Source: Candidatus Latescibacterota bacterium
GTDB lineage: Bacteria; Latescibacterota; CBDEFO01
Reading direction: 5' to 3'
Length of the DNA stretch: 64,000 nt
Assembly: GCA_965237525.1 (NCBI GenBank)
Contig: CBDEFO010000007.1
Location: 224,001-288,000 of the forward strand
The number at the start of each line of letters is the position of its first letter. Position 1 is the stretch's first letter. Shown one piece after another: positions 6,411 through 59,994 of this stretch. The notes below the pieces were generated by a model that was given only the letters and a program-made list of their open reading frames with translations, had not been told where the DNA came from and made no database searches. Position numbers and translations under genes: made by a program.

Positions 6411-8792
6411 GTGTCAAATTACAAAGTAGTTATATTTATCAGCAGTCTATCATCTATAACGACAGGCGGCATGAGATATTCTGTTGAGGTGTATAAATAT
6501 CTGAAGCGGAGCGCAGTATCCGTCAACGTAATCAAATTAGAGGAAATGCCGATCCTCATTAAAAGATTACCCTCTTTTTGAATCTAACCCTTACCGATTT
6601 CTGGTCTGTTTGCAGCTTCTGTCTTTGAAGCTGGACAGGAATAGAGGACTTGTACTGCCCCCCAGGAAAGCGACACCAATTAAGCAACCTGGGGTAGTAG
6701 ATAAAATTGTTTTCTCCACTCTTCCGGGGTCTTATATCCCAGGGATGAATGAAGCCTGTTCAAAGGATTCAAACTTGTGAAGCCAAACACACTCTTGCTT
6801 GAGGGTCCTGAAAAAACGCTCTACAACACCGTTCCAATCGGGCTTACCACTTGGTATGTATTCCTGACGAATTCCCCAATATTCGGTACTCGCCAAATAG
6901 GCCCGAGCCAAAAAGATGGAACCATTGTCAGAGCGCAAAGTGAGACCCTGGGGGACAACCTCCTTGGAAGTGTATCGAGAGATCACGGCCCGATCCAGGG
7001 CATCTGTGGCCTCCAGTGCCCTCCCTTTTCGACTAAAACGATACCCAGGAACCTCCCGACTCCCGTTGTCCACCACCGCAATAAGAGGACACCAACCGTC
7101 TTCCCCACAATAGATCTTGGGTCAAGTCAGCCGACCAGAGACTGTCAGGACGATCCATCACAGAACGCTTCTGGGCAACCTGTGGCCCCTTTCTCCCGGG
7201 GTCCCCGATTGATTCTATCGGGGATTCCACAGCTTACACTGCCACCCCTTAAGCTTCATTATCCTATGAACCTTCTTGATGTTGACACATGCCCCTTCCT
7301 TGAAACGAAGATGCGCCCAAACCCGCCTGTGACCAAATGCCTCTTCTTGGTCGAGTATCCCTCGAACACGAAAAGCAAGCTGTTCATCTATCACAGACTC
7401 TTCGACAGAAGAACTGACACCTCTATCCCTAAGCCTATACAGAGTCGAACGATGCAAACCCAAAGCCAAAGCTACCACCTTACGGGAATAGCCTCGACCC
7501 AAAAACCGCCCACTCAAGGCAACCGCTTCGTTTTTTTTAGACGGGCTACCTCCTCGAGTATCTCCAACTGGAGGGTTAACTGCCCTACCTTACGCTCCAA
7601 CCGGCTGACCTCCCGCTCCTTCGGATCCTTGCGACCATGCCGAGACTTGCAGACTCTCCTGCCCTCCTTCTAAGAAACTATCACGCCAAGCATACGCCTG
7701 TGACTGGCTAATTCCATTCTTCCGACACACCTCTGATACATCCGCTCCTTTCAAAACAGCCAACACCACCTCTACCTTACGGGTCGCCGTCCAGCGCTTA
7801 CCATCTTTCACTTCGGGGCTTGACAATTTGACCTCCCTTCTCAAACCCCAATTTGCGAAATATTTGTCGCTCTGTCAAGGGGAGCGGTATGGACTTATCC
7901 TATTTGAGGATTATCACTTTCATCCGAGAGTGTTTCTATTTAATCTGTTTGTAAAAACTTTTTTCAAAAGCGTAAGTGCTCTATCTACAGTACAGTTGTC
8001 CTCCTTCTATCATTCTGCTTTGCGATATAGCGCGGCTAAAAAGATAGATGAATTTATTGTCAGGATATTTTTCAGCCAGTTGGATAAGATATTAGCCATC
8101 AGCGATAACACGAAAAATGAAGTGCTGTTGCTGAGGATCGAGCGCTCTAAGGCCAAGAGGATCTACTGCGCTTACGAGGATTTGCCTTGGAGGACATCGC
8201 CCAAAAGCCAAAATGGACGCAAGAGGTTAAGATAGACCTCCTCTTTATGAGGAGGAGCCACGCTGACAAGGGGCTCGAATATCTATTGGAGGTAGTCGCT
8301 CAGTTTGGGGATGATTTTGTCTTAAATATAGTGGGCGACATCGATCACGATCTGAGTTACTACAAGAAACTAACTGAAATTATTGGGAAGCACAATATAA
8401 TGGGGAAGATCTTTTTCCACGTGCAAGTAGATGATAGAAGCAAGCTTAAACGATTCTATGAAAGGTCAGATGTTTTTGTCTTGCCTTCAATTGTCGAAGG
8501 AATCGGTGTTGTTATTTTGGAAGCGATGTCAGCCGGTCGTCCCATAGTCGCCACAAACGTGGGAGACATCCCAGAGTTCGTAAAAGACGAATACAACGGC
8601 ATCCTTATGCCTCCGAGGGATGCGTCCTTTCTCGCGAACGCTACAAATTCTCTGATATGTTCTCCTTCTATGAGAAAGCAATATGGTACTAATGGTTTCA
8701 AATACTGTCAAAACGTTCGAGATCTTCATTCCTGGGATGGAATCTGTAGGGGAATGCATGACATTCCTAACCGATTGGTTGATGCTGCTTAG
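6411..8792 (+). pseudogene. GT4 glycosyltransferase with several frameshifts and an IS3-family insertion
   Basis: Colinear paralogue of 17716-18855. Frameshifts near 6575 and 8185; IS at 6651-7891; FVLPSIVEGIGVVILEAMSAGRP. Confidence 0.85.
6651..7891 (-). mobile_element. Degenerate IS3-family element (orfA about 7590-7844; orfB fragments 7215-7517, 7033-7230, 6732-7076)
   Basis: HTH-type orfA (RWTATRKVEVVL..VSEVCRKNGIS); integrase core LRSDNGSIF and NGVVERFFRTLKQE; A-run near 7531-7538 at the orfA/B junction; imperfect IRs; duplicated (G)GACT flanks. Confidence 0.8.
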
Positions 8793-8918
8793 AAGGAAGG
8801 TAGACATAGCATCGGATAATCCACTCTAGAAGATGCACTCCCAAACTTTGATTCGGAGATTAAAGGGTATCATACTAACATTTATTAGAATGTTCTCAAT
8901 CTAAAGGAGGAAATCACC

Positions 8919-9143
8919 ATGAAATATTTCACATGCTTGATAAGGACACTTACTGTTCTTGCTTTATTTTATTTGATCTTCCCTGAGAAGGCGTATGCCT
9001 ATATGGATATGGGAAGTCTCAGCTACATTCTTCAGCTGATTATAGCTGCTTTAGTTGGGATATTGTTGACAACTAAGATAGTATGGCATAGGATTAGATT
9101 CTTCTTCAAGAAGTTATTCTCCAGAGAGGAATACCACGAATAA
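8919..9143 (+). CDS. Small signal-peptide/TM protein of the AY(L/I)DPG(T/S)GS-like type
   Basis: RBS AAGGAGG at about 8904; AYAYMDMGSLSYILQLIIAALVG followed by a basic tail. Confidence 0.7.
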   Translation: MKYFTCLIRTLTVLALFYLIFPEKAYAYMDMGSLSYILQLIIAALVGILLTTKIVWHRIRFFFKKLFSREEYHE

Positions 9144-9238
9144 GCTGAAGACTAGCGGAAATGTCCCAAGCTCGTTTTGAATACCCCTAAAAGAATGTAG
9201 TTCTTGCAACGCTCAATTTTGTCAACATCTTAACAATC

Positions 9239-10411
9239 ATGGCACATATAACAGCCAGGAAGCCTAATGTTATCGCGCTTTTGTTAAGAGAAATCGCGGA
9301 CTCTTACCGGTTTTTTCGGGAAATTCCAAAAACAGAAAAGATGATAGTTTTCTATGCCGAACACAAAGGCTATTATCCCAACTTCGAAGGGCTTATTGAG
9401 GAATTGATCGGTAAGTACGAACAGACTTTGTGCTATATCACATCGGACCCCAATGATCCAATTCTGCAAACATCAGAGTTGAGAATAAGGACTTTTTATT
9501 TGAATAAGTTACTACCTTTCTTCATGGTATTTATCAATTGCAAGGTATTTGTCATGACATTGACCGACCTTAATCAATCCTATCTCAAGCGCTCAATCAA
9601 TCCGGTGCACTACGTTTACGTATTCCATGCCCTTGTCAGCACTCACATGATGTATCGATATGGTGCTTTTGACCATTACGATGCGATTTTGTGTGTGGGT
9701 CCACATCATGTCAGGGAAATCCGCAAGTGCGAAGAACTCAATAGTCTTCCGCCGAAGAGGCTTGTGGAGGCAGGTTATTATCGACTGGAGCGAATTTACA
9801 GGGAATATCAGAAATATTCCCGAAAGGAGTCTTCCTCAGGTGATAAGCGAACTGTCCTGATCGCACCTTCTTGGGGAACTGACAACGTTTTGGAGTCTTG
9901 CGGCGAGCGTCTTGCCGATATTCTTTTGAAGGCGGGTTACGAGGTGATTGTTCGGCCTCACCCGGAAACTGGACGACGTTCTCCTGAACTCATGACTTTG
10001 TTTGATTCCAAATTCGGCCGTAACCCGAATTTTACTTTGGAGAGGTCTGTTGCCACAGATGACTCATTGCTGCGGGCCGATGTCCTGATATGTGACTGTT
10101 CGGGGATTGCCCTTGAATACGCTTTTGGCACCGAGAGACCGGTTTTATTTTTGGATGTTCCCATTAAGATCCAAAATCGGAGATTTGAAGAACTGGGAAT
10201 CGAACCGTTAGAGTTGCTTCTCCGATCAGAGATCGGCGTGATCGTCTCTCGGGAGAGGTTAGGTACCGTTCCTGGAGTTATCTCGAACTTAGTGGCGAAT
10301 AGTGGAGCGTACAGAAAACGTATAGTCGAGTTGAGAGATCAGAACGTCTATGCATTCGGACGCTCCTCGGAGATTGGCGCTCAATACATCATCGATCTTG
10401 TCAATGAGTAA
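9239..10411 (+). CDS. CDP-glycerol glycerophosphotransferase (TagB/TagF)-family protein
   Basis: YVFHALVS, EAGYYRLE, LIAPSWG, VRPHP, ADVLICDCSGIALEYAFGTERPVLF. Confidence 0.8.
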   Translation: MAHITARKPNVIALLLREIADSYRFFREIPKTEKMIVFYAEHKGYYPNFEGLIEELIGKYEQTLCYITSDPNDPILQTSELRIRTFYLNKLLPFFMVFINCKVFVMTLTDLNQSYLKRSINPVHYVYVFHALVSTHMMYRYGAFDHYDAILCVGPHHVREIRKCEELNSLPPKRLVEAGYYRLERIYREYQKYSRKESSSGDKRTVLIAPSWGTDNVLESCGERLADILLKAGYEVIVRPHPETGRRSPELMTLFDSKFGRNPNFTLERSVATDDSLLRADVLICDCSGIALEYAFGTERPVLFLDVPIKIQNRRFEELGIEPLELLLRSEIGVIVSRERLGTVPGVISNLVANSGAYRKRIVELRDQNVYAFGRSSEIGAQYIIDLVNE

Positions 10412-10433
10412 CATGCTTATTGCAGAATAAGGC

Positions 10434-10462
10434 TTCACAAAACGTGTGGGAAAAGTTATACT
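10434..10462 (+). promoter_or_regulatory. Putative sigma70 promoter upstream of pepM
   Basis: TTCACA-N17-TATACT, ending 42 bp before the ATG. Confidence 0.4.
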
Positions 10463-15215: not shown

Positions 15216-16676
15216 ATGGATGAAAGGAGAAACGAAGTCCAGGCTGTGCTTAAGGACTTATATTACGCATTGATAATTGTGAGCCTCTTTTTCGGCCGCC
15301 ACTTCCTAATTGTTAACACGCCGACTAATGCGTTCTACAATGCCCAGACCTTGAAGGAATTTGTTCTTGTTTGTGTCTGCTTTTTCTAGATTGCCGTAAT
15401 CATATCTTTCGTCTTTTCGGCGGCAAGAAGGTTTCTCACAAAGCACTACAGGGAAGATCGTGTTTACTACTTTATATATATCGATACTTCCCTTGTTAGA
15501 TTTTATCGTTTTAATGGTTTTGCCGTATGATGGAGCAAAGTTTATAAATCGTGAATTTACAGGTTTCATATTTCCTTACTTTGCACTTTTCTATATTCCG
15601 GCAACTATTCTAATTTCTTTCAAATATCAAATAGAAAAATATGGAGAGAAAATTATCCGAATAGTTCCAGTTGTTTGTATAGTGATTATATATCATGCGA
15701 TACCTCGGTCATTTAGTAAAAATATCATAGAGAATGAGTTTATTCATTCAGACAAACCTTCTACGCCGATACATTTGCTAATTTTCGATGGGATGTCCCC
15801 TGAGGTTCTCAATGACCCAGATCTAAAGCATCTATTTCCAAATATCAGCTCATTCTTACGTAATAACAGCTTTGTTTTTGAGGATGCATATTCGCCAGGG
15901 GCATGGACAATAAGATCGATACCTAAGTTAATAACAGGTCTACAATATGATGGTCGATATAGCTAGAGGATTTACTCTATCTTATTGCCGAATCGGAAGA
16001 TGACGATTACGAGGATCTGCCAGTAAAAGGTTCACTATTTCAAATCTCAGAGTCATATGGGTACAACAATATTCTGATCGGGGGTTATTTGCCGTATTGC
16101 GATTTATTTGGCAAAGATTTGACTTATGGAATACAGTATTCCAAATATTCAAGATTTTATCAATTGTTGCCTCGCCGATTTACTGATTTTCTCTATATAC
16201 AGTATCTCTACGAAAGAGATGTTTTTCTACAGTCCTTTGACCAATATTTGTTAAAGATCGATTCATGTCCAAAGAATACATTCTTTTTTATTCATTTTCT
16301 CATTCCGCACCAACCTTTAATTTTTGATTCTCAGGGATTTGCACAGATTTATTGGGAAAGAACTCATAGAGGAGAAGGATGGTGTACACCGAAGTTTAGA
16401 GAGAGATATGTGGAGCAGCTCATGTTTGTTGACAAGAAAGTAGGAGAAATACTTGGAAAACTGAAAGCTCACAACCTGTATGACAAGAGCATGATTATTA
16501 TTACTTCAGACCATAACTATCTAGAATATGATAGGCTAAGAATACCTTTATTCATCAAGGTTCCTTTTCAAGAAAGTCAACATGTCGTTAGAGAGAAAGT
16601 CCATATCGTAAATTTTGGAAAGTTTCTATCTTCACTTCTTGAATCAAACGTGGTTCATATACAGAGGTTGCAATAG
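15216..16676 (+). pseudogene. Membrane sulfatase-fold protein with a stop and frameshifts
   Basis: ATG at 15216, TAG near 15387, frame changes near 15450 and 15962. Motifs IHLLIFDG, SPGAWTIRSIP, FFFIHFLIPHQP, IIITSDH. Paralogue of 1-706. Confidence 0.75.
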
Positions 16677-16746
16677 AAGAGTATCTTTTCAAAGTAGCAA
16701 GGATTTGGCTGAGTCCGCAAATTTCAACCAAAAATAGGGCTTGCCC

Positions 16747-17665
16747 AATACTAAGCCCTATCTGTGCTTTTCCCTTTTTCAGGAGGACTCTTCTTTCGAG
16801 ACTGGATAGGGCCTTTTTGAGGATATTGACAGAGGTTTTGATAAGACGAGCGATAAGCGACATTGAGGATAAATCTTCGATCCTCTTCTGTGCAAGTCAT
16901 CCTTTTGCCGCCGATTACGTAGAGAAATTCAACGAAGCGATGATTTGCTACGACTGCACCGAAAAGTTTACTGAGTTCGACTTTTGGGTGACCCTTAGAA
17001 AAGAAGTCGAAGAAAAGGACAGTCTTCTGACTCAAAGAGCCCATCAGATCTTTACACAGACCCAACCTCATCTTGTTGAGAAGAGGTCCGATAATCCTAA
17101 TGTATTTTTGATCCCCAACGCCGTTGACTACGATCTTTTCCAAAACTGCCTGGATATGCCAGAGCCATCAGACTTGAAGGGCATCAAGAGACCTATCTTG
17201 GGCTATGTAGGTAGCATCAACTCCCGTTTCGACTTTGAGCTTATAAGAAAGACAGCACAAGTCTATAAAGATTGGTCGCTCGTCTTCATAGGTGATGCCA
17301 GCGACAGTTCGGTAATAAAGTCAGTAGAGGACTTAAGAAATGTTTACTTTTTGGGGGAAAAGCTTTATAATATAGTACCGAGCTATCTGAAGGAGTTTAG
17401 TGTCTGTCTGATGCCCTATATTAACCTTACTTGTTTGGAGAGCCCGACAAAGCTTTTCGATTATCTTGCTTCTGGAAAGCCTGTCGTCTCGACGGATATA
17501 CCGGGCGTTAGGGACTTTGCAGATGTCGTATTCGTATCTAAAACCGAAGATGAGTTTATAACAAACATAGGCTTAGCCGCAGGTGATAATAATCCTTTGT
17601 CAGTCCTGAAGCGAAAAGAGCGCGCAAGAGAAAATTCGTGGGATGTCAGGGAAAACCAGATATAG
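16747..17665 (+). pseudogene. 5'-truncated duplicate of the 5194-6399 glycosyltransferase
   Basis: Similarity to 5445 onward starts abruptly at 16747 (AATACTAAGCCC). TAG at 17663-17665 replaces the TGG of copy 1. Confidence 0.8.
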
Positions 17666-17715
17666 GACATTATTAAAAAGGAGTTATCTTCAGCACTTTA
17701 CAAGGAGATGACAGG

Positions 17716-18855
17716 GTGTCAAGTTACAGCGTAGTAATGTTTGTTAGCAGCCTATCATCTATAACGACTGGCAGCATGAGATATTCTGTTGAGGTGTATA
17801 AATATCTGAAGCGGAGCGCAGTATCCGTAAGCGTAATCAATTTAGAGGAAATGCCGATCCTCATTAAAAGATGTCCCCTCTTCTTGAACTTGATCCTTAC
17901 CAACTTCTGGTTTATCCGGAGACTCCTGTCGCTGAGATTAGACAGAAACAGCAACGTCATCCTCTTTGAGGATTACCATTTTCATCCGAGGCTCTTTCTG
18001 TTTAATCTTCTTGTAAAGACTTACTTCAAGAAGGCAAGTGTCCTATCTACTGCGCACCATTTGTCCCTATCCCATCATCCTGCTTTGCGATCCAATACAG
18101 CTAAAAAGATAGATGAGTTTATTATCAGGATATTCTTCAAACAATCAGATAAGATATTGGTCAACAGCGATAACACGAAAAACGAAGTGCTGTCGCTCGG
18201 GATTGAGCCGTCTAAGGTTGAGAAGATTTATATCTCTCACGAGGATATGTTCTTAGGGTACGTCAGCCAGAAGCCCGAATGCTCACAGGATGGGAGGCTG
18301 AACCTTCTCTTTGTGGGAAGGTGCCACGCTGATAAGGGGCTCGAATATCTGTTGGAGGCAATTGGGCTGCTCGGAGACGATATTGTGTTGAATATCGTGG
18401 GCGACACCTGTCACGATCCGGAATACTACAAGAAACTAGTTGAGATCGTACGAAAACTCAAAATAGAGGAGAAAATCTTTTTCCACGGATATATCGATAA
18501 GGAGGAACTGAAGCAATTCTGCCAAGGGGCTGACATCTTTGTCCTGCCGTCAGTTGTCGAAGGATTCGGAGCTGTTCTTCTGGAAGTGATGTCTGCCGGT
18601 CTTCCCATAGTCGCTTCAAACGTGGGAGGTATTCCGGAGCTGATTAAAGACGGATACAACGGTGTTCTTGTGCCTCCGAAAGAGGGGTCCTCTCTGGCGA
18701 ACGCTATAAATTCTCTGATACGTTCTCCTTCTTTGAGAAAGCAGTATGGTATGAATGGATACGAATACTTCCGGAACTTTCGGGATCTTCATTCCTGGGA
18801 TAGCACCTGCAAGAAAATACACGACATTCTCAGCACAATGGCTGATGCTGCCTAA
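17716..18855 (+). CDS. GT4 glycosyltransferase
   Basis: FVGRCHADKG, FVLPSVVEGFGAVLLEVMSAGLP. Confidence 0.9.
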   Translation: MSSYSVVMFVSSLSSITTGSMRYSVEVYKYLKRSAVSVSVINLEEMPILIKRCPLFLNLILTNFWFIRRLLSLRLDRNSNVILFEDYHFHPRLFLFNLLVKTYFKKASVLSTAHHLSLSHHPALRSNTAKKIDEFIIRIFFKQSDKILVNSDNTKNEVLSLGIEPSKVEKIYISHEDMFLGYVSQKPECSQDGRLNLLFVGRCHADKGLEYLLEAIGLLGDDIVLNIVGDTCHDPEYYKKLVEIVRKLKIEEKIFFHGYIDKEELKQFCQGADIFVLPSVVEGFGAVLLEVMSAGLPIVASNVGGIPELIKDGYNGVLVPPKEGSSLANAINSLIRSPSLRKQYGMNGYEYFRNFRDLHSWDSTCKKIHDILSTMADAA

Positions 18856-19746: not shown

Positions 19747-20449
19747 CATTTTGGCTAATGCGGCTTAAAATGAAGGGCGGACACAGGAATTGATTCTTGA
19801 GCAGATGGAGACAAACTGAGTTTAAAAAGCTATTTGCTTTTTTCCTGTTAGCATTGACTATAAGATTATCTGTATTTCTGCTTTCGAGTGATATGGTAGC
19901 CCCTATTTCTAGGTATGATGACTCAGTTGCGTATCTCCGTATCGCGATTAACTTAGTTTCCAGGTTTGAGTATAGTGCTATACCATCAATTAGGCAAAAC
20001 GATATATGGTTTCCGAAGTCTCATATACCACCATTATATCCATTGTTCTTAGCAGTCGTCTATTGTTTTGCCGGTCAAAATCTAATTATCTTTAAACTAA
20101 TTCAAATTGTTCTGGCATCGTTTCTGCCTGTTATTTCATATCTTATGACGTTGAGAATATTTGCAGATTCAAAAGCCGGTGTTATATGTGCTCTTTTAGT
20201 TTCAACTTATCCTCCTTTTGTTATTGATTGCAAAGCAATACTCACAGAATGGTTATTCACTCTTCTATTGTCCTGTAGTTTACTATTTTTATTAAGAATG
20301 TTAGATTTCTCTGATAAAAAAAACATCATGCTTTCAGGCATCTTTCTAGGTCTTGCTTTTCTGTGTAGACTAGATGCAATTGCTTTTATCCCGGTTTTGA
20401 TTGTCTATTTGTTCATTCTAGGCAAGTTCCTTTCTTTCCCTCGTATTAA

Positions 20450-21968
20450 AAGCCTTGTGAAATAGTTATGTCCCAGGCAGCGTGTGAAGCGCCGATTATG
20501 GGTCAAAGAGTAGCATATCGTATCGTTTTGCTGTGGAATAAGCAAAATAGTCTTATCAGAGTTCTGGTCAGCAAGGAATAGGAGCTGTTTGAAGAACAGG
20601 ATGCACTGTCTTTGACAGACAGGGCACACATAGACGCTTTCCCCCTTCTTATGAAAGATACAAGCCTCTTGAGATTCTGTACTGTTGCAACAAGATTCAA
20701 CTGTTCATTCAGTGAGGCTGGTCCTCTATAACGGGCTCGTCCCATACCGTGTTGTTGCCTGGCTTCAGCAAAGATATGTTCACTGCGTTTACGGAGTCTC
20801 CGGGAGAGTTTGTAGTCAGCTGTTAATGAGATAGACCGCGCATGATTTCTGGCTTTCGCCTCTCGCACTTTTCTATCCCGTTCGGCCTGAATATGTGCTG
20901 GATTTGTCTTGTTTTTCCATGTAGGAATCGGTTCAATCTTCTCATCGGCTCGCAGAGGAATATGGGGTATGATTCCCCGGTCAAGCACATCAGCGATAAA
21001 ATTACCAGAACCGTAACCGGTATCGGCACTAAGTGTCTGAATGTCTTTGGGCATGGTGTATGTTTCAAGGTCATCTACCATCTTAAGGGCACTTTCGGGC
21101 TCTGCTGTCCCTGTCGCCTGCGTGCCCTGAGTCTCAAGGATTACTCTGCTTTTTGTGTCGATCAGATCATGGCCCATAAACGAGAGAAAAGCCCCTTTGC
21201 CCTTCGATTTGCTGTATAAGCGCGCGTCGGGGTCTGTAGTCGAACGGTGTGTTTGGTTCGTCCACTTTTCACCATGAAAGTCTTTATCCTGAGGATGCCC
21301 GGACCTACCCTTTGTCTTATCACCTTCAAAACCGATTCCCTTGAGATAATCATCAAGAGAAACAGGGGGTTCTATCGGCTCAATACTTTTCACTGAAGCA
21401 TCAGCTTGTATCTGAGTGCCGTCGACACTAAGGTGTTTACCGCTCACAAGACCGACATCTATGCAACACTGGACTACCTGACGCATTATCCGTTCAAACA
21501 ACCCACTGGATGCCCACTTGTGATTGCGAAGCTTGTTGATCGTGCTCCTATCCGGAACCGCATCATCAAATGTCTGATGACAAAACAACCGATATGCCGC
21601 ATGCATCCCCACTTCCTGACAGAGCCGATTCTCACTCAAATTATACAGATAGCCAATAAGGATCATTCGAACAACTAATTCAGGATCAATACCGGGTCTG
21701 CCATTGTCAGGGCAATAACAATCTGATACAACGTCTCGTACAAATGAAAAATCAACTGCCTCATCAATCTGACGAAGGATATGATCCTCGGGAACTAAAT
21801 CCTCCATCTGAAAATAGTGAAACATCGGATTTGTCTGTTCCTGCTTTTGTGGGGTCATTGTTTCCTCCATGTATAATATTATCAATAACATAATATAATA
21901 CATCGGAGCTGCTTTATCAATGCTTGTTCTATACTACTTTCTGAATCTAAGGGTTTTTCACAAGGCTT
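20450..21968 (-). mobile_element. IS1182-family insertion sequence, copy 2
   Basis: Same IRs as copy 1; target duplication TTAA (20446-20449, 21969-21972). Confidence 0.9.
20503..21858 (-). CDS. IS1182-family DDE transposase
   Basis: Translation matches copy 1. Confidence 0.9.
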   Translation of the reverse strand: MTPQKQEQTNPMFHYFQMEDLVPEDHILRQIDEAVDFSFVRDVVSDCYCPDNGRPGIDPELVVRMILIGYLYNLSENRLCQEVGMHAAYRLFCHQTFDDAVPDRSTINKLRNHKWASSGLFERIMRQVVQCCIDVGLVSGKHLSVDGTQIQADASVKSIEPIEPPVSLDDYLKGIGFEGDKTKGRSGHPQDKDFHGEKWTNQTHRSTTDPDARLYSKSKGKGAFLSFMGHDLIDTKSRVILETQGTQATGTAEPESALKMVDDLETYTMPKDIQTLSADTGYGSGNFIADVLDRGIIPHIPLRADEKIEPIPTWKNKTNPAHIQAERDRKVREAKARNHARSISLTADYKLSRRLRKRSEHIFAEARQQHGMGRARYRGPASLNEQLNLVATVQNLKRLVSFIRRGKASMCALSVKDSASCSSNSSYSLLTRTLIRLFCLFHSKTIRYATL

Positions 21969-28206: not shown

Positions 28207-29726
28207 AAGCCTTGTGAAAAACCCTTAGATATCAGAAAATAGTATAAAACAAGCATTGATAAAGCAGCTCCGATGTATTATATTATGTTATTGATAATAT
28301 TATACATGGAGGAAACAATGACCCCACAAAAGCAGGAACAGACAAATCCGATGTTTCACTATTTTCAGATGGAGGATTTAGTTCCCGAGGATCATATCCT
28401 TCGCCAGATTGATGAGGCAGTTGATTTTTCATTTGTACGAGACGTTGTATCAGATTGTTATTGCCCTGACAATGGCAGACCCGGTATTGATCCTGAATTA
28501 GTTGTTCGAATGATCCTTATTGGCTATCTGTATAATTTGAGTGAGAATCGGCTCTGTCAGGAAGTGGGGATGCATGCGGCATATCGGTTGTTTTGTCATC
28601 AGACATTTGATGATGCGGTTCCGGATAGGAGCACGATCAACAAGCTTCGCAATCACAAGTGGGCATCCAGTGGGTTGTTTGAACGGATAATGCGTCAGGT
28701 AGTCCAGTGTTGCATAGATGTCGGTGTTGTGAGCGGTAAACACCTTAGTGTCGACGGCACTCAGATACAAGCTGATGCTTCAGTGAAAAGTATTGAGCCG
28801 ATAGAACCCCCTGTTTCTCTTGATGATTATCTCAAGGGAATCGGTTTTGAAGGTGATAAGACAAAGGGTAGGTCCGGGCATCCTCAGGATAAAGACTTTC
28901 ATGGTGAAAAGTGGACGAACCAAACACACCGTTCGACTACAGACCCCGACGCGCGCTTATACAGCAAATCGAAGGGCAAAGGGGCTTTTCTCTCGTTTAT
29001 GGGCCATGATCTGATCGACACAAAAAGCAGAGTAATCCTTGAGACTCAGGGCACGCAGGCGACAGGGACAGCAGAGCCCGAAAGTGCCCTTAAGATGGTA
29101 GATGACCTTGAAACATAGACCATGCCCAAAGACATTCAGACACTTAGTGCCGATACCGGTTACGGTTCTGGTAATTTTATCGCTGATGTACTTGACCGGG
29201 GAATCATACCCCATATTCCTCTGCGAGCCGATGAGAAGATTGAACCGATTCCTACATGGAAAAACAAGACAAATCCAGCACATATTCAGGCCGAACGGGA
29301 TAGAAAAGTGCGAGAGGCGAAAGCCAGAAATCATGCACGGTCTATCTCATTAACAGCTGACTACAAACTCTCCCGGAGACTCCGTAAACGCAGTGAACAT
29401 ATCTTTGCTGAAGCCAGGCAACAACACGGTATGGGACGAGCCCGTTACAGAGGACCAGCCTCACTGAATGAACAGTTGAATCTTGTTGCAACAGTACAGA
29501 ATCTCAAGAGGCTTGTATCTTTCATAAGAAGGGGGAAAGCGTCTATGTGTGCCCTGTCTGTCAAAGACAGTGCATCCTGTTCTTCAAACAGCTCCTATTC
29601 CTTGCTGACCAGAACTCTGATAAGACTATTTTGCTTATTCCACAGCAAAACGATACGATATGCTACTCTTTGACCCATAATCGGCGCTTCAGACGCTGCC
29701 TGGGACATAACTATTTCACAAGGCTT
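28207..29726 (+). mobile_element. IS1182-family insertion sequence, copy 3 (1520 bp, opposite orientation)
   Basis: Same IRs; target duplication TTAG (28203-28206, 29727-29730). Confidence 0.9.
28318..29673 (+). pseudogene. IS1182 transposase with a nonsense mutation
   Basis: TAG at 29116-29118 where the other copies have TAC (Tyr). Confidence 0.9.
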
Positions 29727-29775
29727 TTAGTCTGTTGCGAAATTAAGCGAGCTTTTCAATGGAGACCTACTTTAG

Positions 29776-32008: not shown

Positions 32009-32675
32009 TCTTGATCAGATAAAGGCCTGGCTGGGATACAGAGCCATAGATGGTGTGACAACTAACCCTTCGATTATGCTTAAGAAAGGCATCTTTGACC
32101 TTGAAGCCGGAGCAAAGGAGATAGCCCGGGTTATGGATCAACTCCCTGTCTCAGTGGAGGTCACGAGCAATGATCCTGAGGAGATGCTGGATCAGGCGAG
32201 GGAGATTTCCCAGTGGGCGCTAAATATCGTAGTGAAGATCCCGATCATAAACGAAAATGGGAGGCCCTGCCTGGACGTTATCGGGACACTGGAGGATGAG
32301 GGGATAAGAGTCAATGTCACGGCCTGTTTGTCCTACGGTCAGGCTATATTGGCGGCAAAGGTCGGAGCTACATATGTGAGTATCTTCGCAGGGCGGGTAT
32401 CCGACGAGGGTCACGACGCCTCCAAACTCATCAGGATGGTGAGGGACTGGATAGACGACTGGGGATATAAAGCAAAGATCATAGTCGGGAGCATACGGGA
32501 GGTCATCAACATTCAGGACGCCGCTGCTGCTGGAGCTCACGTGATAACTGTACCACCTGAGTTTATGCATAAGTTAGTAGATCATAAGTTGTCGAGGGCC
32601 ACGGTGCAGGCCTTTGTCGAGGATGGTCAGAAGGCTCTTGCTATGATGATTGAGCAGATGGTCTCGAAACAGTAG
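31983..32675 (+). CDS. Transaldolase / fructose-6-phosphate aldolase family protein
   Basis: IFLDTA, GVTTNPS, VVKIP, VNVT, YVSIFAGR, GSIR. Confidence 0.9.
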   Translation: MEIFLDTADLDQIKAWLGYRAIDGVTTNPSIMLKKGIFDLEAGAKEIARVMDQLPVSVEVTSNDPEEMLDQAREISQWALNIVVKIPIINENGRPCLDVIGTLEDEGIRVNVTACLSYGQAILAAKVGATYVSIFAGRVSDEGHDASKLIRMVRDWIDDWGYKAKIIVGSIREVINIQDAAAAGAHVITVPPEFMHKLVDHKLSRATVQAFVEDGQKALAMMIEQMVSKQ

Positions 32676-32731
32676 ACTGTATACAGTAGGCAGAAGACAG
32701 GGCACCCCACCTATCCCTGTATGCTGTCTAC
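32671..32731. repeat. AGTAGAC heptamer-armed dispersed repeat
   Basis: AGTAGACTGTATACAGTAGGCAGAAGACAGGGCAC...CCCTGTATGCTGTCTAC; inverted relative at 49330-49428. Confidence 0.55.
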
Positions 32732-32754: not shown

Positions 32755-33921
32755 TTGGAATTGGTGTTCCTTCTTTCCCTTGCGACTGTGGTCTACGTAT
32801 ATCTTGGTTATCCTTTCGCACTGATGGTTATAAGAGCCGTAAAGGGTAAGAAGCCCCCGATTGAATCTATCGGGGGTAAAAAGGATGATGTTACTCCTTC
32901 GGTATCTTTAGTTATCTCTGCTCATAATGAACAAGAGGTTATTGGGAAGAAGATTGAAAATAGCCTCCTTTTAGACTATCCACGGGATAAATTGGAAATT
33001 GTGGTGGCTTCCGACTGTTCCTCCGATAGAACGAATGAGATCGTCCGAAGCTATTCGGATCAAGGGGTAATTCTGAATATTATTCCTCAAAGAGGAGGCA
33101 AAACCGTAGCCCAAAACGAGACTGTTCCTCTAACCGAGGGCGAAATCGTTATCTTCTCAGACGCCGATTCGATCTTTGAGAGGGATGTCATCTTAAGGCT
33201 CGCAACAAATTTCAGCGATCCAGAGGTAGGTGCCGTCTCGGGTCGGCTCCTCTATACCAATTCAAACGAATCGGCCATGAGTTCAGGAGAGAGCCTCTAC
33301 TGGAAGTACGAAAATTTGCTGAGGCGGTTGGAAAGCGATATAGGATCGTGCATCATGGCAAATGCAGCGATCTTTGCTATACGGCGTGAGTTTTACAGGC
33401 ATCTCGACCCGGGGTTTTCAGAGGATTTTGTGCTCCCTCTTTGGATATCTGCCGATGGCGCAAAGTCCCTGTTCGATCCGGAGGCTGTGTGTTTTGAAAG
33501 GACGGCTGTTACCCCAAAGGATGAGTCGTCCATGAGGATCAGGACCGCTCATGGGGATTCCTACGGTCTTTTCAAGTTGAAGTGCATGTTGTCGCCATTT
33601 CGACCCCTTTTGGCTTTTCAATCTATTTCCCATAAACTCCTGCGCTGGGCTGTGGGATTCTTTCTGATCTTGGCTTTCATCTCCAACGCCTTCCTTCTTC
33701 ACTCTTTCCCTTTGCTTCTTTATAAAATTACCTTCCTTTTGCAGTCTTTATTCTACCTGGCGGCTCTTGCCGGACTGATTCTGAACAGAAAAGGCAAAAA
33801 AATGCGCCTGTTCTACCTGCCCTATTATTTCTGCGTGGTCAATACAGCTGCGGTGATAGGCTTGATGAAAAGCATTCTGGGAGTACCGTACGTGACTATA
33901 TGGGAACAGAGATTAAGGTAG
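32755..33921 (+). CDS. GT2 membrane glycosyltransferase (CESA-like)
   Basis: YVYLGYP, ISAHNE, SDCSSD, GGKTVAQN, FSDAD, YWKYE, EDF, SHKLLRW. Confidence 0.9.
   Translation: MELVFLLSLATVVYVYLGYPFALMVIRAVKGKKPPIESIGGKKDDVTPSVSLVISAHNEQEVIGKKIENSLLLDYPRDKLEIVVASDCSSDRTNEIVRSYSDQGVILNIIPQRGGKTVAQNETVPLTEGEIVIFSDADSIFERDVILRLATNFSDPEVGAVSGRLLYTNSNESAMSSGESLYWKYENLLRRLESDIGSCIMANAAIFAIRREFYRHLDPGFSEDFVLPLWISADGAKSLFDPEAVCFERTAVTPKDESSMRIRTAHGDSYGLFKLKCMLSPFRPLLAFQSISHKLLRWAVGFFLILAFISNAFLLHSFPLLLYKITFLLQSLFYLAALAGLILNRKGKKMRLFYLPYYFCVVNTAAVIGLMKSILGVPYVTIWEQRLR
32855..32875. repeat. 21-bp palindrome, in frame inside the GT2 gene
   Basis: CCCCGATTGAATCTATCGGGG, read as part of PPIESIGG. Confidence 0.8.
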
Positions 33922-35756: not shown

Positions 35757-35932
35757 GCAATATGTGTTGGTTGGCTCTTGCCTTGAGTTGTTGGGAGGCG
35801 GCGTGTCCGCTTTGCTGGGGAGCCAGCAAAGCACGAAGTGGGCAAAGCAATATCAACTTTTGTCGTTGATTTTGCTTGGAGGTTTGCCCCCGATTAGATC
35901 GGGGGTCACAATGTCCCTGAAACACGAAAGGT

Positions 35933-46795: not shown

Positions 46796-46826
46796 CCGAC
46801 CCCCAATAGATTCAATTGGGGGTCGG
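46796..46826. repeat. Perfect 12-bp-stem hairpin whose core is a variant of the 21-bp palindrome
   Basis: CCGACCCCCAAT-AGATTCA-ATTGGGGGTCGG. Confidence 0.7.
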
Positions 46827-47847: not shown

Positions 47848-47892
47848 AATGACTCACCGTTGTTAGCCCGATTAATTCATAAACTTGGTGGA

Positions 47893-48033
47893 GTCATTGC
47901 GAGGAGCAAAGCGGTCCCCGATTGAGTCTATCGGGGAAGCAATCTCAAGGTTTTATAGTGGTCTCCTATGAGAGCCGGAGAGTATTACATCTACCACAGA
48001 ATCGAGATTGCTTCGCCTTCGGCTCGCAAGGAC
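47893..48033. repeat. Inverted pair GTCATTGCGAG..GAAGCAATCTC / GAGATTGCTTCG..CTCGCAAGGAC carrying a nested 21-bp palindrome at 47916-47936
   Basis: Direct reading of the sequence. Confidence 0.7.
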
Positions 48034-48115
48034 ACCGAAGGTGGTAAAACAGCATAACTATAATATATTACAATCACTTAATTAATACACGTCCTTTTTT
48101 TGTGAATTATTCGGG

Positions 48116-49129
48116 TTAGTTCTTTCTTTTAATTAATTTCTTTAGAGAGGGGCAATCCAGCGGAACGAGGCCGTGCTTGCCACCGGCCGACCAGGTGACC
48201 TCACCCACATATACGCTGCCTTGCGAATCGACCCAAATGTCGTGCGGCGCGTAGAAGTCACTGGGCGCACACGGATGGTCGCCGCCGCCCCAGCGGGTTT
48301 GCAGCTCGCCGTCGCGATTGAACACGCTTACCCGCCCGCCGGTGGACTTAGGGTCGGGTGTCATCCAGGGAAAGAGCCCACACCGCCGGCCGACCTCAGC
48401 GACGAACACGTTGTCCTCAGAGTCAATAAAGAGCTCGCATGGCCTCACGACTTGCGTCCACTCGCTGAGAAACTCGCCGTCAGGCGTGAATATCTGCAGC
48501 CGGTTATTCTCGCGGTCGGCCACAAAAACCCTGCCAGTGCTGTCCACACCGATTCCGTGTGGCACGTGGAACTGGCCCGGTCCGTCACCCGACTCTCCCC
48601 ATGAAAACAGGAGTTCCCCGTCGGGGGAGAACCTGTGGATGCGGGCGTTGCCGTAGCCATCGCTGACGTACATCTCACCTTCTACCGAAAGCGCCAGGTT
48701 CGTCGGGTAATTGAAAGGAGGTCCAGGCTGTTTCATCGTGCGGTAGTCAAAATTCACCACTCCCGTATCACTCGGACAGCCGCTCGTTCCGAGTGTCAGT
48801 ATCACGTCTCCGCTGAGGGTGCACTTGCGGACCGTGTGGTCGAAGTCATCGGTAAAATACAACATGTCGTCCGTCCCGATCCAGATCCCGTGTGCTCTGG
48901 CGAACAGATCTTCTCCCCAGTCGTGTAAGAACTTTCCGTCGCGATCCAAGACGATGACCGGATGCTCGCCGCGGTTGAAGACGTACACTCGATCCTGTGA
49001 GTCAGTGGCGACCCCAGCCACATCAGCGTTGCTCAAAGCCGTGGGAAGTTGTCCCCAGCCGGGAACGACCTCGTACTGAAAGTTTCCGCCACCGACGAAC
49101 GTTTCGTCAGATCTGCTACTTGTTTCCAC
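48116..49129 (-). CDS. NHL-repeat beta-propeller (peptidyl-alpha-hydroxyglycine lyase-like)
   Basis: GVATDSQDRVYVFNR, SDGYGNARIH, FHVPHGI, ADRENNRLQ, PHDIWVDS. Confidence 0.85.
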   Translation of the reverse strand: METSSRSDETFVGGGNFQYEVVPGWGQLPTALSNADVAGVATDSQDRVYVFNRGEHPVIVLDRDGKFLHDWGEDLFARAHGIWIGTDDMLYFTDDFDHTVRKCTLSGDVILTLGTSGCPSDTGVVNFDYRTMKQPGPPFNYPTNLALSVEGEMYVSDGYGNARIHRFSPDGELLFSWGESGDGPGQFHVPHGIGVDSTGRVFVADRENNRLQIFTPDGEFLSEWTQVVRPCELFIDSEDNVFVAEVGRRCGLFPWMTPDPKSTGGRVSVFNRDGELQTRWGGGDHPCAPSDFYAPHDIWVDSQGSVYVGEVTWSAGGKHGLVPLDCPSLKKLIKRKN

Positions 49130-49329
49130 GGTAGTTGCACCTCGTAAGTCTAACTAATCCAGGACCACGTAGGATTAGACACAGCGTTACCGTCGAAGCA
49201 ATAGACCGCACCGAAGTGCCCCTGTCATTAGCGGTGTTTCTCTTGATAGAAGCTCGAGTTTCATGGATGATCTTACTTCATAAACGTCGCTATATGTGGG
49301 CTGTGCTCTCAGCCCTGACCTTGTAGGTA

Positions 49330-49428
49330 ATAGACAGTAGACAGCATACAGGGACTCCCCCTGCTCCTCCCCGACTACTGTCTATGGATGGGAGATGGTG
49401 CCCCTGTCTACTGTTTGCTGTTTACTTG
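49330..49428. repeat. AGTAGAC heptamer-armed inverted repeat
   Basis: TAGACAGTAGACAGCATACAGGG ... CCCTGTCTACTGTTTGCTGTTTACT. Confidence 0.55.
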
Positions 49429-56428: not shown

Positions 56429-56830
56429 ATGCCTATAGAAAATGAGGATTTTATGCAGATCAGGGACGTAGTACACGAGATTGTGAGCAAATCTCAGGAA
56501 AAATTAGCTACGATGATTGCCAATCAGTTCTTGAAGATAGAGGATGGGCTTTCCAGGATCAGGGAGGAGTACTCAGCCTCTGAATCGGACATTTCGGATG
56601 TTGAGATGGATCACGATCTTCTGAAGATGAAGGTACAGGGGATGGAGATGGGAATAAATGAGGGCAGGGAGATTAACGCAAAGTTGGGAAGACAGATGAA
56701 TTACATTGAAAAGGAATTGAAGGAGATAAGATTGGGCCTGAGCGTTCTTTCAAAGAATGGTGCAGGAAGCGTCGATATTGAGACCTTTGAAAGGAGGATA
56801 CAGAGGATGGAGGAAGTGGTTTTCAGTTGA
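56429..56830 (+). CDS. Hypothetical coiled-coil protein
   Basis: RBS AGGAGG; heptad-rich sequence. Confidence 0.7.
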   Translation: MPIENEDFMQIRDVVHEIVSKSQEKLATMIANQFLKIEDGLSRIREEYSASESDISDVEMDHDLLKMKVQGMEMGINEGREINAKLGRQMNYIEKELKEIRLGLSVLSKNGAGSVDIETFERRIQRMEEVVFS

Positions 56831-56853
56831 CAGGGGAAGAACAAATCTGCTTA

Positions 56854-57663
56854 TTATCTCCCACGTTTGATCTTAATGAGATCACCTCTTTTTATGTTTA
56901 AGATCTTGTGAGCATTTCCGTCCGTAATGGATATTTCCAGAAGTACCGCGCTTCCAAATATAGCGAGGGGCTTTTGTTTTCCCCCTTGCGGTGGTCGTGC
57001 CGCTTCTGCATACGAGTGGGAAATAGAGTTTATGGAGTGTTGTCCAGCCAGTATCCGGAAGGGATGGTTGGAGGTAAAGGCGTCGAATTTGTCTTTGGAG
57101 ATGTCTGTGACGAGATTGCCAAAGGCGTCTATGTGGATGACGTGGCACGTAAGCACATCCTGAAAGATCGTAGGTTCCGGGATGGGCAGTTGAACTATTT
57201 GCGAGAGTCTTGGACCAAATTGTGGGGGACTTACTCCTTTAGATAGATGCGCCGCGGCGGGGGCAAAGATATCGCGCCCGTGAAAGGTGTCGCTTACATC
57301 GGGAAGCGTTAAATCGGGATTGGAGATCTCGTAAGCGTCCTCTTTCTGGAAGTCTTCCAAGACGAGGCTGAATATGCCGTTGTCGGGTCCTACAAAGGCA
57401 TAGCGATCGGTCTGGAGAATGATGGGTTTTCTCTCTCCTCCGACTCCTGGGTCTACGACGGCTATATGAATTGTATCTTTGGGAAAGTGAAGACAGGCGT
57501 TTAGAAGAACAAAGGCGGCATCGAGAATGTCATGGGGGGGTACCTGATGGGTGATGTCTATTATTTGGGCGTCGGGATTGATATTCAGGATGACACCCTT
57601 CATAGCTCCGACGAAGTAGTCCTGGTCTTGGAAATCTGTGGTAAGTGTTATTATAGAGTTCAC
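56854..57663 (-). CDS. SAM hydroxide adenosyltransferase / chlorinase-fluorinase family (DUF62)
   Basis: ITLTTDF, VVDPGVG, VGPDNG, SDTFHGRDIFAP, HIDAFGNL. Confidence 0.9.
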   Translation of the reverse strand: MNSIITLTTDFQDQDYFVGAMKGVILNINPDAQIIDITHQVPPHDILDAAFVLLNACLHFPKDTIHIAVVDPGVGGERKPIILQTDRYAFVGPDNGIFSLVLEDFQKEDAYEISNPDLTLPDVSDTFHGRDIFAPAAAHLSKGVSPPQFGPRLSQIVQLPIPEPTIFQDVLTCHVIHIDAFGNLVTDISKDKFDAFTSNHPFRILAGQHSINSISHSYAEAARPPQGGKQKPLAIFGSAVLLEISITDGNAHKILNIKRGDLIKIKRGR

Positions 57664-57804
57664 CTTGTGATTCCAGTCTGAAGGATAAAATGCCTCATAA
57701 GTATTTCAAATGCGCTTTCGTATACCCTTTGAGAGTCTATTTCAGATCGGTGTTCCTAGAATAGTTTTGATCTATGTCAGAAGTACTCTCATGGTAATTT
57801 TGAA

Positions 57805-59994
57805 TCAGTCCTGCCTTATGACGGCTATCTTTCCCGTCTCTACTTTATCGCCGTTTTGGTCCCTTATTATGTAGAAGTAAGTACCTGATGCGATGAAGAA
57901 GCCCCGTCCGTTTGTTCCGTCCCATTTGAGGAATCTGTCGTTTCGGGAGTCTTGTTTTTCCCATACAAGTTCTCCAGATAGTGTAAATATTGACACGGTG
58001 GATCTTATGGGAAGACCGGAAAAGGTAACTCTGGCGCCTTCCGTTCGGGAGATGATAAAGGGATTGGGATATACTATCTGTTTAGGGGACATATATTGCA
58101 GGGCTTCGTAGATAGTGTTGTTATCCTCCTTTTCCTCGGCTACTTCGTTGTCAGGATCTACTTGGATAAGGAGGTTTACATCGCCGGGTCTGTTCCAAGG
58201 GACTTTGAAGACGTAATTGCCGCCACCAGAAATGGGGGCATTAACCCTTTTGGACAAAATTGTTGTGCATTCTGTGGAGTCCGGTTTGCAGATTGAGAGT
58301 TTAACAGTAAAGTCTTTCTCTACTGATGATGTGCTGATGTTGTTTACGGGGACTATGAGGGCTTCTTCTTGTTCGGAGAAGCGGACGTGACCCTTTAAGG
58401 CGCCGACTTCGCGCTCGTCGCGTCCGAAGATGGCAAGGTCAGGCATTTCATCCTGGGGTTCCTCTCCGATGGCTAACTGGGCAAGACCAGCTACGCAGAG
58501 CTTTGCTACTTTGGATACTAAAGGGAAATTGAGGCTGTCGGCGACGTCGTCTATGGTGTGAAAGTGTCTGTTGAACTGGGGAAAGTGACCCAGTGTGTCA
58601 GGCCGAAGGGCGTGTCTGTTGGGCAGGAAGTTTTCGATGCCCATAACGGCGTCGTATCCGAATCTCCAGAAGGATTCGTGGTCGCTGAAGCCCGCATTGG
58701 GATCCACGAGGGTATCTACTATCAGGTCAATGTCGTAGGTATCTTTCGCCTGAAGGAGAAGATCTATAATCCAAGCAGAGCTTCGGTTGCCCACTATCTC
58801 GACTCTGTCGAAGTGGCTATTGAATCCTAACATATCCAGATTGATGACTCCGATAATGTTTTCGTCACTTTTAGTAGCGTTGCTGACGAAGTTGAGACTC
58901 CCCCACAGTCCCAGTTCCTCTCCTGAGAAGGCTATGAATTTTATGGTCCAAGGGAACTCCAACTGCGAGAGTATCCTTGCAGCCTCGATAAGGGTGGCGA
59001 TTCCAGTGGCATTGTCGTCTGATCCCGGAGTAGGTTCTGTCCTCCATCCTGCCCAATTTACCTTGCCGGAGCCTCCAATAGCGTCGTAGTGTCCCACGAT
59101 AGCGTAGTATCCAGAGCTGGGATCCTGTCCATGTAGCGTTCCGACCACGTTGTACAGCGTATATTCTTCGTAGCCGCTGCGCACGAAGGGAATAAGCTCG
59201 ACCGATCCTTCCGGCAGGGCGTCTTCGAGCTGATCCATGATGTAGCCTGCGGCGTGGTCGCGGGTTTCGGGACGGAGCGCAAATCTCGTGCGGAGATTGG
59301 ATTTTTCGTTGTTGTATCTTCCGTTATTTTTGGTGATGTCAAAGTAGGTCAAATTGGCTACATCCTTTTCTATTCTCTCTGCACTTACCTGCTGGAGAAG
59401 GGACGCTATCCGAGGGCTGGCTTTGTGGGGAAGCGCCGTTTTGCCTGATGGAGGAGGGAACCATCCCCTAAGGCTGATGTTGTGCGGAAGGGGCTGGATA
59501 TAGTGTGCATGCAGGTAAGGTTCGAGGAGACAGAGGGCGTCCGGAGAAATTTTGAGGATCGCAGGTCCGTACGGAGTAGTGGCAACGTGCAAGGTGCGAC
59601 AAAAGCGAGATATTTCTGGAAGATGGCTTTCATCTATCAGCGCACAGTAGTACTCGTCAGGGCCCTCGCCTCGGTCGAGTATCTGGACGTCCCAGCCCTG
59701 TCCCCGATTGAATCTATCGGGGATCAAAAATTGGAGTTGATCCGGATGGACGGATACAAGGACTGCGTTCTGGGAGCAATGGCGGATGTCCAGCTTGTAG
59801 GATTCTATAGTTGCGAGGTCGTTTAGATTATCCCAGTGGATTTTGATCAGAACGGATGAGCTATCGTCGGCACATAGGCCTGAGGGTGCGAAGAGCGTCA
59901 AGAGAAATAGAGAGCAGACAATAGGCAGCAGGCACGGCAAAAAAGTAGACAGTAGACAGTAGACAGTAGAAAGGGCACTTCCTCTCCTCTGCAT
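57805..59994 (-). CDS. Secreted M28 metallopeptidase with CARDB and FlgD-Ig-like C-terminal domains
   Basis: GHYD, GSDDNATG, FSGEELGLWGS, NLDM, SDH, HTIDD; VDPDNEVAEEKEDNN; VYPNPF..WDGTN..SGTYF. Start uncertain (59994 or 60024). Confidence 0.85.
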   Translation of the reverse strand: MQRRGSALSTVYCLLSTFLPCLLPIVCSLFLLTLFAPSGLCADDSSSVLIKIHWDNLNDLATIESYKLDIRHCSQNAVLVSVHPDQLQFLIPDRFNRGQGWDVQILDRGEGPDEYYCALIDESHLPEISRFCRTLHVATTPYGPAILKISPDALCLLEPYLHAHYIQPLPHNISLRGWFPPPSGKTALPHKASPRIASLLQQVSAERIEKDVANLTYFDITKNNGRYNNEKSNLRTRFALRPETRDHAAGYIMDQLEDALPEGSVELIPFVRSGYEEYTLYNVVGTLHGQDPSSGYYAIVGHYDAIGGSGKVNWAGWRTEPTPGSDDNATGIATLIEAARILSQLEFPWTIKFIAFSGEELGLWGSLNFVSNATKSDENIIGVINLDMLGFNSHFDRVEIVGNRSSAWIIDLLLQAKDTYDIDLIVDTLVDPNAGFSDHESFWRFGYDAVMGIENFLPNRHALRPDTLGHFPQFNRHFHTIDDVADSLNFPLVSKVAKLCVAGLAQLAIGEEPQDEMPDLAIFGRDEREVGALKGHVRFSEQEEALIVPVNNISTSSVEKDFTVKLSICKPDSTECTTILSKRVNAPISGGGNYVFKVPWNRPGDVNLLIQVDPDNEVAEEKEDNNTIYEALQYMSPKQIVYPNPFIISRTEGARVTFSGLPIRSTVSIFTLSGELVWEKQDSRNDRFLKWDGTNGRGFFIASGTYFYIIRDQNGDKVETGKIAVIRQD
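59702..59722. repeat. 21-bp palindrome, in frame inside the M28 peptidase gene
   Basis: CCCCGATTGAATCTATCGGGG, read on the minus strand as part of IPDRFNRG. Confidence 0.8.

Follow-up and report, generated by a model that had tools for sequence, protein, structure and literature searches.

We analysed a 64,000-nucleotide stretch from a Candidatus Latescibacterota bacterium (contig CBDEFO010000007.1, positions 224,001 to 288,000; hereafter the window) in which a 21-nt hairpin recurs inside genes, between genes and within other repeats. The window's genome (G000; 4.58 Mb in 8 contigs, 96.6% complete) and a sister genome of the same genus (G001; a single contig of 4.54 Mb) are both near-complete and form the pair compared below. 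The original prediction, made from the window alone, named six copies of the hairpin; all six lie where it placed them. The copies and their hosts are as follows.

7203-7223, plus strand: one-mismatch copy inside orfB of an IS3 insertion sequence (IS), where it separates the HTH_21 part from the rve part by a stop and a frameshift; net gain of 20 nt
32855-32875, plus strand: copy identical to the consensus, lying in frame within the linker that follows the first membrane helix of a GT2 glycosyltransferase (open reading frame, ORF, 32755-33921); closing pair C..G
35887-35905 (19 nt), plus strand: short-loop sister form, intergenic, common to G000 and G001
46801-46821, minus strand: two-mismatch variant, intergenic, with one stem pair changed in a compensated manner from G-C to A-T and the extended palindromic flank typical of this variant
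47863-48119, plus strand: dispersed host repeat of ~255 bp; its hairpin arms are of the GTCATTGC type, and it has two sites at which the element inserted independently
47916-47936, plus strand: one-mismatch copy in one arm of the ~255-bp repeat; net gain of 20 nt compared with empty copies
59702-59722, plus strand: exact copy within the N-terminal part of an M28 peptidase gene (minus-strand ORF 57805-60024), whose reading frame it keeps; closing pair T..A

Allowing two mismatches, we found 464 copies of the 21-mer in G000 (117 exact, 313 within one mismatch and 603 within four), and the window alone contains 9 strand matches compared with 0.01 expected from 100 shuffles. What had been described as a 21-bp palindrome is indeed a hairpin, but an imperfect one: a 7-bp stem (8 bp counting the closing pair) encloses a 7-nt loop. 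One stem pair carries compensated changes (G-C in 509 copies, A-T in 32, T-A in 9), and a short-loop sister form with the same stem and a 3-nt loop is represented by 19 G000 copies within one mismatch of its 17-nt core. The bases that close the hairpin are T..A or C..G at most G000 loci; of 452 de-duplicated loci, 355 have complementary bases here, compared with 207 on average and at most 244 under permutation. Short flanks also recur with particular loop variants; the earlier statement that copies share no flanking sequence is thus incorrect. The hairpin unit is at least 23 nt long with variable extra flank (range 21–28 nt). No constant target-site duplication was detected at any register among the 464 sites, in line with the earlier remark that none was obvious. 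A literature search, whose coverage did not extend to most subscription papers, revealed no description of this hairpin's sequence family.

About half of the loci lie in repeats. The hairpin lies inside the element itself, heptamer tracts or REP-type (repetitive extragenic palindromic) repeats at 232 of the 452 loci, versus 246 of 5000 random positions; by class, which may overlap, 110 loci are nested in the element, 73 lie in heptamer tracts and 77 in GTCATTGC-type repeats. Dispersed heptamer tracts also occur in the window at 32672-32702, 49323-49353 and 59907-59975, the last of them in the part of the M28 gene predicted to encode its N-terminal region, where it differs from G001.

The comparison between genomes covered 2.8 of the 4.54 Mb of G001, with 93–97% identity over long blocks, and a site was classified if one flank or both were unique and the flanks reached 85% identity. 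Of the 185 sites examined from G000, 102 were shared, 37 were empty in the other genome, 9 differed by an extra nested copy and 37 could not be assigned; the corresponding numbers from the G001 side (181 sites) were 110, 25, 3 and 43. In total, 74 candidate polymorphic sites were obtained. The search for empty orthologous sites, proposed in the original prediction, was therefore productive, and the existence of such sites bears out its notion of a mobile hairpin far shorter than MITEs (miniature transposable elements with inverted repeats) or Rickettsia palindromic elements (RPEs). We conclude that the hairpin is a real, recently mobile repeat, present or absent at orthologous sites.

Individual hosts illustrate this polymorphism. 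The M28 site is below the 85% flank-identity filter, yet it is clearly empty in G001: 23 bases stand for 5 target bases, a net gain of 18 nt and 6 residues. The GT2 copy is present in G001 too. The linker it occupies is 27 residues long in G000 and in the G001 orthologue, whereas of 91 homologues that could be measured, 84 have 20–22 residues and 6 have 30; the hairpin-encoded peptide was not found in any other of 120 hits. Among 14 IS3 copies spanning the 7203 site, 11 are filled and 3 empty; the empty copies have stop-free frames of 340, 311 and 223 residues, the filled ones of 129–199. The ~255-bp repeat is filled at the 47916 site in 36 of its 53 G000 copies. The copies at 7203 and 47916 thus travel as passengers of multiplied hosts. 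For the variant at 46801-46821 no orthologous match was detected in the compared part of G001. Among contigs of four public runs, the empty form of the 255-bp repeat at its 20-nt insertion was seen in X6; at low depth and with incomplete bridging, neither the GT2 nor the M28 site appeared as an empty allele in these runs. No RNA run was listed as containing the sequence.

Where direction can be judged, it is insertion, because empty IS3 copies retain a long frame, GT2 homologues are devoid of the peptide, and nested copies split an intact older hairpin by a newer one. Two side observations concern these hosts. The IS3 copy of the window (7033-7233 and 6732-7121, minus strand) has a second orfB frameshift soon after the one made by the hairpin. 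In addition, a near-identical three-gene block is found at G000:C2:18154-21570 and C4:546138-549551, both times with the same hairpin insertions; it may be a true duplication or an assembly or strain artefact.

Comparison of filled and empty alleles also shows the anatomy of the junctions. Net gains among the 74 candidates were +19 nt (17 sites), +18 (11), +20 (8), +27 (8), +21 (4) and +26 (3). Most events add 18–20 or 26–27 nt while replacing a few target bases, unlike the fixed 21-bp unit proposed earlier. In the simplest events, 19 nt are added between the C and the G of a 4-bp palindrome. At 59 polymorphic sites, filled and empty alleles are unlike at the first flanking base in 61–68% of cases and at bases 2–5 in 19–32%, versus 3–12% at 176 shared sites; this remodelling is symmetric, both sides of the hairpin being altered. 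At the 48 of 59 sites that could be cleanly parsed, target bases were lost in 43, 3–5 nt were duplicated in 4, and neither was seen in one. The closing pair is complementary at 47 of these 48 sites, including 28 of the 29 at which both of its bases are new. The four apparent duplications look like common left flanks of other copies, consistent with annealing of a donor tail.

Loop variants and flanks are linked as well. Among 343 non-consensus de-duplicated loci, 60 pairs share both the variant and the left 5-mer (permutation mean 7.6, maximum 22), and 73 pairs share the variant and the right 4-mer (mean 14, maximum 34). Of 29 sites, 12 have new flank bases that stand next to another copy as well, compared with a control mean of 5.5 and maximum of 10. 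Retained target sequence matches that of donor-like copies at 301 nt over 31 sites, compared with 130 ± 28 when targets are shuffled. Two rules, one for the junction and one for the target, were rejected. A 2-nt inversion at the left junction holds for the IS3 and 255-bp hosts and fails at most other sites. Hairpin loops as preferred targets gave a weak signal: the centre of the insertion site lies in a hairpin loop at 20 of 59 sites (12 of 47 when nested cases are left aside), versus 119 of 600 control positions between genes and 107 of 600 within them.

Most copies are located between genes. With genes called by our own ORF and hexamer script (3409 genes, 74% coding in G000), 61 of the 464 copies (about 13%) are genic, and gene cores contain 38 copies compared with 234 expected. 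The hairpin does enter genes, IS3 and another repeat, as had been claimed, and also itself; a tendency toward genes is not supported. Both window copies predicted to be in frame, in GT2 and in M28, are so in their respective ORFs. Of 16 polymorphic sites in genes called in both genomes, 15 gain a number of nucleotides divisible by three, versus 15 of 55 intergenic sites; the commonest gain, +19, is frame-shifting. The enrichment for frame-preserving events, proposed earlier as something to test, is present; given the genic depletion and the mostly multiple-of-three genic gains, it is best read as survival under selection and not as a property of the hairpin. At the protein level each copy adds mostly 6 or 9 residues (range six to nine), in place of the approximately 7 suggested previously. 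Side by side with these cases, tandem paralogues at G000:C8:737651-752653 carry four copies in frame in predicted signal-peptide regions, while a neighbouring paralogue is free of the hairpin.

With moderate confidence we view the hairpin as a selfish 21-nt core plus closing pair that is likely copied, together with a few flanking bases, into a site resembling its own surroundings, host recombination or template switching being a more probable agent than a dedicated transposase. Homology-guided copying is favoured because target bases are replaced, the closing pair arrives with the core, and loop variants are tied to flanks. An existing copy would serve as the donor, and its flank bases would come along. 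The moving species may be a single-stranded hairpin with short tails; these would anneal by few-base homology to a nick or gap, and the hairpin would then be patched in. Copies in frame would be the survivors of selection.

Several observations weigh against this interpretation. Clean +19 events into C^G occur several times and make flank transfer unnecessary, and for 17 of the 29 sites with at least 3 new bases there is no donor-like copy in the sequence compared. The ‘new’ flank bases may be partly ancestral and decayed in the empty allele; polymorphic sites also differ by ~5–20% farther from the junction. The homology signal comes largely from repeat targets, and therefore a repeat-preferring enzyme could give part of it, while de-duplication may have left paralogous hosts inside the linkage test. 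A few of the 74 candidates are false: one is a paralogue in the wrong register (+33), one duplicated region entered the count two times, and some sites taken as empty hold decayed copies. Since the frame test relies on our own gene calls, it is partly circular. The comparison involved only two genomes, so that for most single-copy sites between genes the direction is unproven. No intermediate or enzyme activity was seen.

We then searched both genomes for enzymes that might serve the element. The Y1_Tnp profile had no match in either genome. RVT_1 had no match in G000 and two in G001 (C1:3731598-3732140 and C1:3678513-3678905), for which no G000 counterpart was found. DUF559 was matched twice in G000, both times within large proteins, and not in G001; one IS110 and one small GIY-YIG gene were detected in G000 and none in G001. 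As none of these five families is present in both genomes, they were rejected as dedicated partners, and of the co-distribution with HUH, GIY-YIG or reverse transcriptase (RT) genes that was to be looked for, none is seen in this pair for Y1_Tnp, small GIY-YIG or RVT_1. Genes with copies on both sides showed no transposase or nuclease evident by eye in their first 60 residues, a check made without a library scan. Thus no dedicated enzyme was found among the families searched, which did not include Cas1, RecT/ERF, Ku/LigD or other HUH proteins. In agreement with the original wording, no mobilising enzyme can be assigned.

A possible source of the core was found outside the genus. In genome G075 the same core bears a TGTC/CGTC tag, has A-T outer pairs and forms inverted dimers, a layout which is that of CGTC REPs (PMC3733652). 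The tagged form occurs in metagenomes in at least 128 copies at at least 125 loci, and 78 of 120 tagged copies, among the matches listed, have an inverted partner within 150 nt. A small GIY-YIG gene lies within 600 nt at 5 of 132 loci (125 metagenomic, among the matches listed, and 7 viral); at L326 and L336 the tagged core begins about 15 nt past such a gene, and L383 and L392 are similar. We also sampled 12 GIY-YIG loci, mostly from carrier genomes (10 of 30 matches from one set and 2 of 35 records from another): tagged hairpins are near all 12, and this core is near 2. In layout and size, the GIY-YIG genes near the tagged core resemble Ssn nucleases with their SRM repeats (PMC11893778); their proteins are 57–59% identical to unannotated N. 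gonorrhoeae matches. The GTCATTGC-type arms likewise bracket small GIY-YIG genes, at L387 and L388. Two loop variants of the tagged form occur untagged in G000, in 6 and 10 copies. Carriers elsewhere have a recurring short left flank of another kind (6 of 7 loci of G079); flanks related to it stand to the left of 33 and to the right of 17 of the 452 G000 loci. The core is thus identical to the arm of tagged repeats that lie beside small Ssn-like GIY-YIG genes in other genomes.

In the two sister genomes the tag is missing: it was found at 0 of 442 strand matches in G000 and 0 of 253 in G001. None of 552 G000 and 311 G001 copies fits the published degenerate SRM pattern (PMC11893778), but this says little on ancestry because the pattern is narrow and fits neither the 128 tagged copies nor the repeats that flank the G000 gene. 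That gene (L197, G000:C4:479.8-480.2 kb) encodes a 95-residue Ssn-like GIY-YIG protein between two inverted TGTC-tagged hairpins, sits between two similar stretches, and is bracketed by a hairpin different from this core; none of the untagged G000 copies flanks it. No Ssn-like or other small GIY-YIG gene was found in the single contig of G001. These data suggest that an Ssn-associated repeat with a TGTC/CGTC tag was the source of the core, which escaped when the tag was lost.

The distribution of the element is patchy. Among 168 genomes of the phylum only G000 and G001 hold hundreds of matches, and 15 others hold one or two. The matches listed from a scan of species genomes are in Ca. Latescibacterota, several Deltaproteobacteria/Thermodesulfobacteriota metagenome-assembled genomes (MAGs) and one archaeal MAG contig; five of the listed MAGs have 8–54 strand matches each. 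A relaxed core reaches at least 5 matches in 18 of 81 genomes around G041. The same core therefore has many copies in two groups that are far apart, and most of the genomes searched around either group yielded none, from which we infer that it probably reached the G000/G001 genus horizontally. Viral sequences gave no match to the G000 form and contained the relaxed core at 7 loci, none of these carriers having a confirmed GIY-YIG relative. As a separate observation, the archaeal MAG has its single exact copy on a 3.5-kb contig (L191), which is possibly mis-binned.

A bolder extension of these ideas is that, by shedding its tag, the core became free of the Ssn/SRM system and turned into an enzyme-free replicator of ~23 nt, which would spread by short-homology patching with host repair proteins, cross phyla unchanged and remodel protein loops. 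We regard this as tentative, and on balance doubtful. If true, it would provide an origin and a mechanism for tiny dispersed repeats of the kind known from Nostoc and for many tiny in-frame palindromes of uncultured bacteria.

An Ssn-family GIY-YIG nuclease could instead cut tagged repeats, freeing hairpin fragments or opening targets that repair then patches, in which case the burst would date from a time when the gene was present. Such a role is compatible with homology-guided copying but, in our estimate, unlikely. It would account for the core being an arm of tagged repeats that adjoin such genes, for the one G000 gene bracketed by TGTC-tagged hairpins, and for the 77 of 452 loci in repeats of the type that brackets GIY-YIG genes elsewhere; moreover, SsnA cleaves single-stranded DNA beside such hairpins (PMC11893778). 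However, bases just upstream of the palindrome govern cleavage (PMC11893778) and no G000 copy kept the tag, a different hairpin flanks the G000 gene, and no homologue was found in G001. Gene presence also tracks the element poorly: among the 81 relatives of G041, incomplete and non-independent MAGs, 8 of the 18 carriers have a detected Ssn-like gene, as do 16 of the 63 non-carriers (Fisher p 0.15).

It is improbable that hairpin transcripts are reverse-transcribed and inserted with flank co-conversion, as suggested for yeast GC clusters. Flank co-conversion is what we observe, such tracts are tied to intron-encoded enzymes in PMC4478555, and G001 has its two RVT_1 matches, but the 96.6% complete G000 has none, and RTs are found in 22 of 39 relatives from other genera that are devoid of the repeat. 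The symmetry of the remodelling speaks against it too, as does the lack of orientation bias of copies relative to neighbouring genes (174 vs 171). Strand bias relative to GC skew was not evident either. We give still less credence to movement of a REP/REPIN-type element by an HUH (RAYT/TnpA) transposase: a short hairpin without fixed duplication in hundreds of mainly intergenic copies would suit it, and carriers G041–G043 are rich in Y1 genes, but both sister genomes are negative for Y1_Tnp, a conserved GTAG/CGTC tag is missing, junctions are imprecise, and the first 60 residues of the genes between copies, inspected by eye, showed no evident transposase or nuclease. A very improbable alternative is an old, fixed set of copies, or a set of functional host signals, with deletion as the cause of empty sites: hairpins are prone to deletion and more than half of the classifiable sites are common to both genomes, but frames and older copies are intact again in the empty alleles, polymorphic sites (17 of 74) are no poorer in exact copies than shared ones (51 of 212), and the family is confined to one genus among the 168 phylum genomes.

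Among known systems, the closest kind appears to be the small dispersed repeats (SDRs; Elhai et al. 2008, Genome Res 18:1484) of Nostoc and relatives. SDRs are reportedly 21–27 nt long and nested within one another, within heptamer tracts and within small transposons, and movement via short homologous sequences has been proposed for them. The nesting of our hairpin in itself, in heptamer tracts and in GTCATTGC-type repeats, and its IS3 and 255-bp hosts, are reminiscent of that behaviour, as are a length of ~20–27 nt, many copies and different positions in close relatives. Nostoc SDRs are described as dispersed repeats of ~20 nt judged to be mobile, and SDR5 enters a defined spot in another repeat (PMC4390886, PMC5861425, PMC3116915, PMC2884548). 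The differences are that our hairpin belongs to another lineage, that its core can be traced to tagged repeats beside Ssn-like genes and is identical in another phylum, and that it has no single target motif like HIP1.

Other families share some features and differ in defining ones. CGTC REPs (PMC3733652) and NTS-SRM repeats (PMC11893778) have elsewhere the same stem core with a tag, A-T outer pairs and inverted dimers beside small GIY-YIG genes, whereas G000 and G001 copies lack tag and tail, are mainly single or nested, and are never spanned by the SRM pattern. RPEs are likewise palindromes tolerated in frame within unrelated genes (PMC2229807, PMC3733652), but they are 105–146 bp long, compared with 21–28 nt, ~13% genic location and a variable gain per event here. 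Yeast mitochondrial GC clusters, too, are short palindromes rich in GC; they are polymorphic for presence and absence, their units merge, and their flanks show co-conversion (PMC4478555); GC42, however, has a fixed 2-nt target duplication and resides in an organelle with intron-encoded enzymes (PMC4478555), and our hairpin has no fixed duplication. GTAG REPs and REPIN-RAYT systems also comprise hundreds of mostly intergenic short hairpins (PMC3116915, PMC3733652), but here the GTAG tag and the doublet unit are absent, no RAYT gene was found, and junctions are imprecise. A MITE was rejected, as there is no fixed duplication at the 464 sites and duplications were seen at only 4 of 48; ends shared with an IS were not sought in every G000 IS. 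By the defining features of these families the hairpin is not a tagged CGTC/SRM repeat, a GTAG-RAYT element, a MITE or an RPE.

Repeats of ~20 nt are too short for two transposase ends. SDR-type repeats are not known to have a demonstrated mobiliser; the same is stated for CGTC repeats in PMC3733652, and in PMC11893778 Ssn is shown to cut single-stranded DNA only, not to move repeats. In the two sister genomes, filled and empty alleles can be paired at dozens of sites, and the junctions speak for copying that is guided by homology and carries flanks along; the tagged Ssn-associated repeats are a candidate origin of the core. Tiny palindromes, nesting and in-frame survivors all have precedents, which lessens the surprise.

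Two further features of the window concern other elements. A 1.5-kb IS with a DUF772 + DDE_Tnp_1 transposase is present in four copies (2753-4251, 20447-21944, 28232-29730 and 60595-62093); of its 135 full-length G000 copies 133 are at least 99% identical, indicating a very recent burst. Finally, gene blocks at ~50-8750 and ~16000-18800, in a glycosyltransferase-rich region, are duplicates of each other at 70–93% identity (families D4–D11 and D13).

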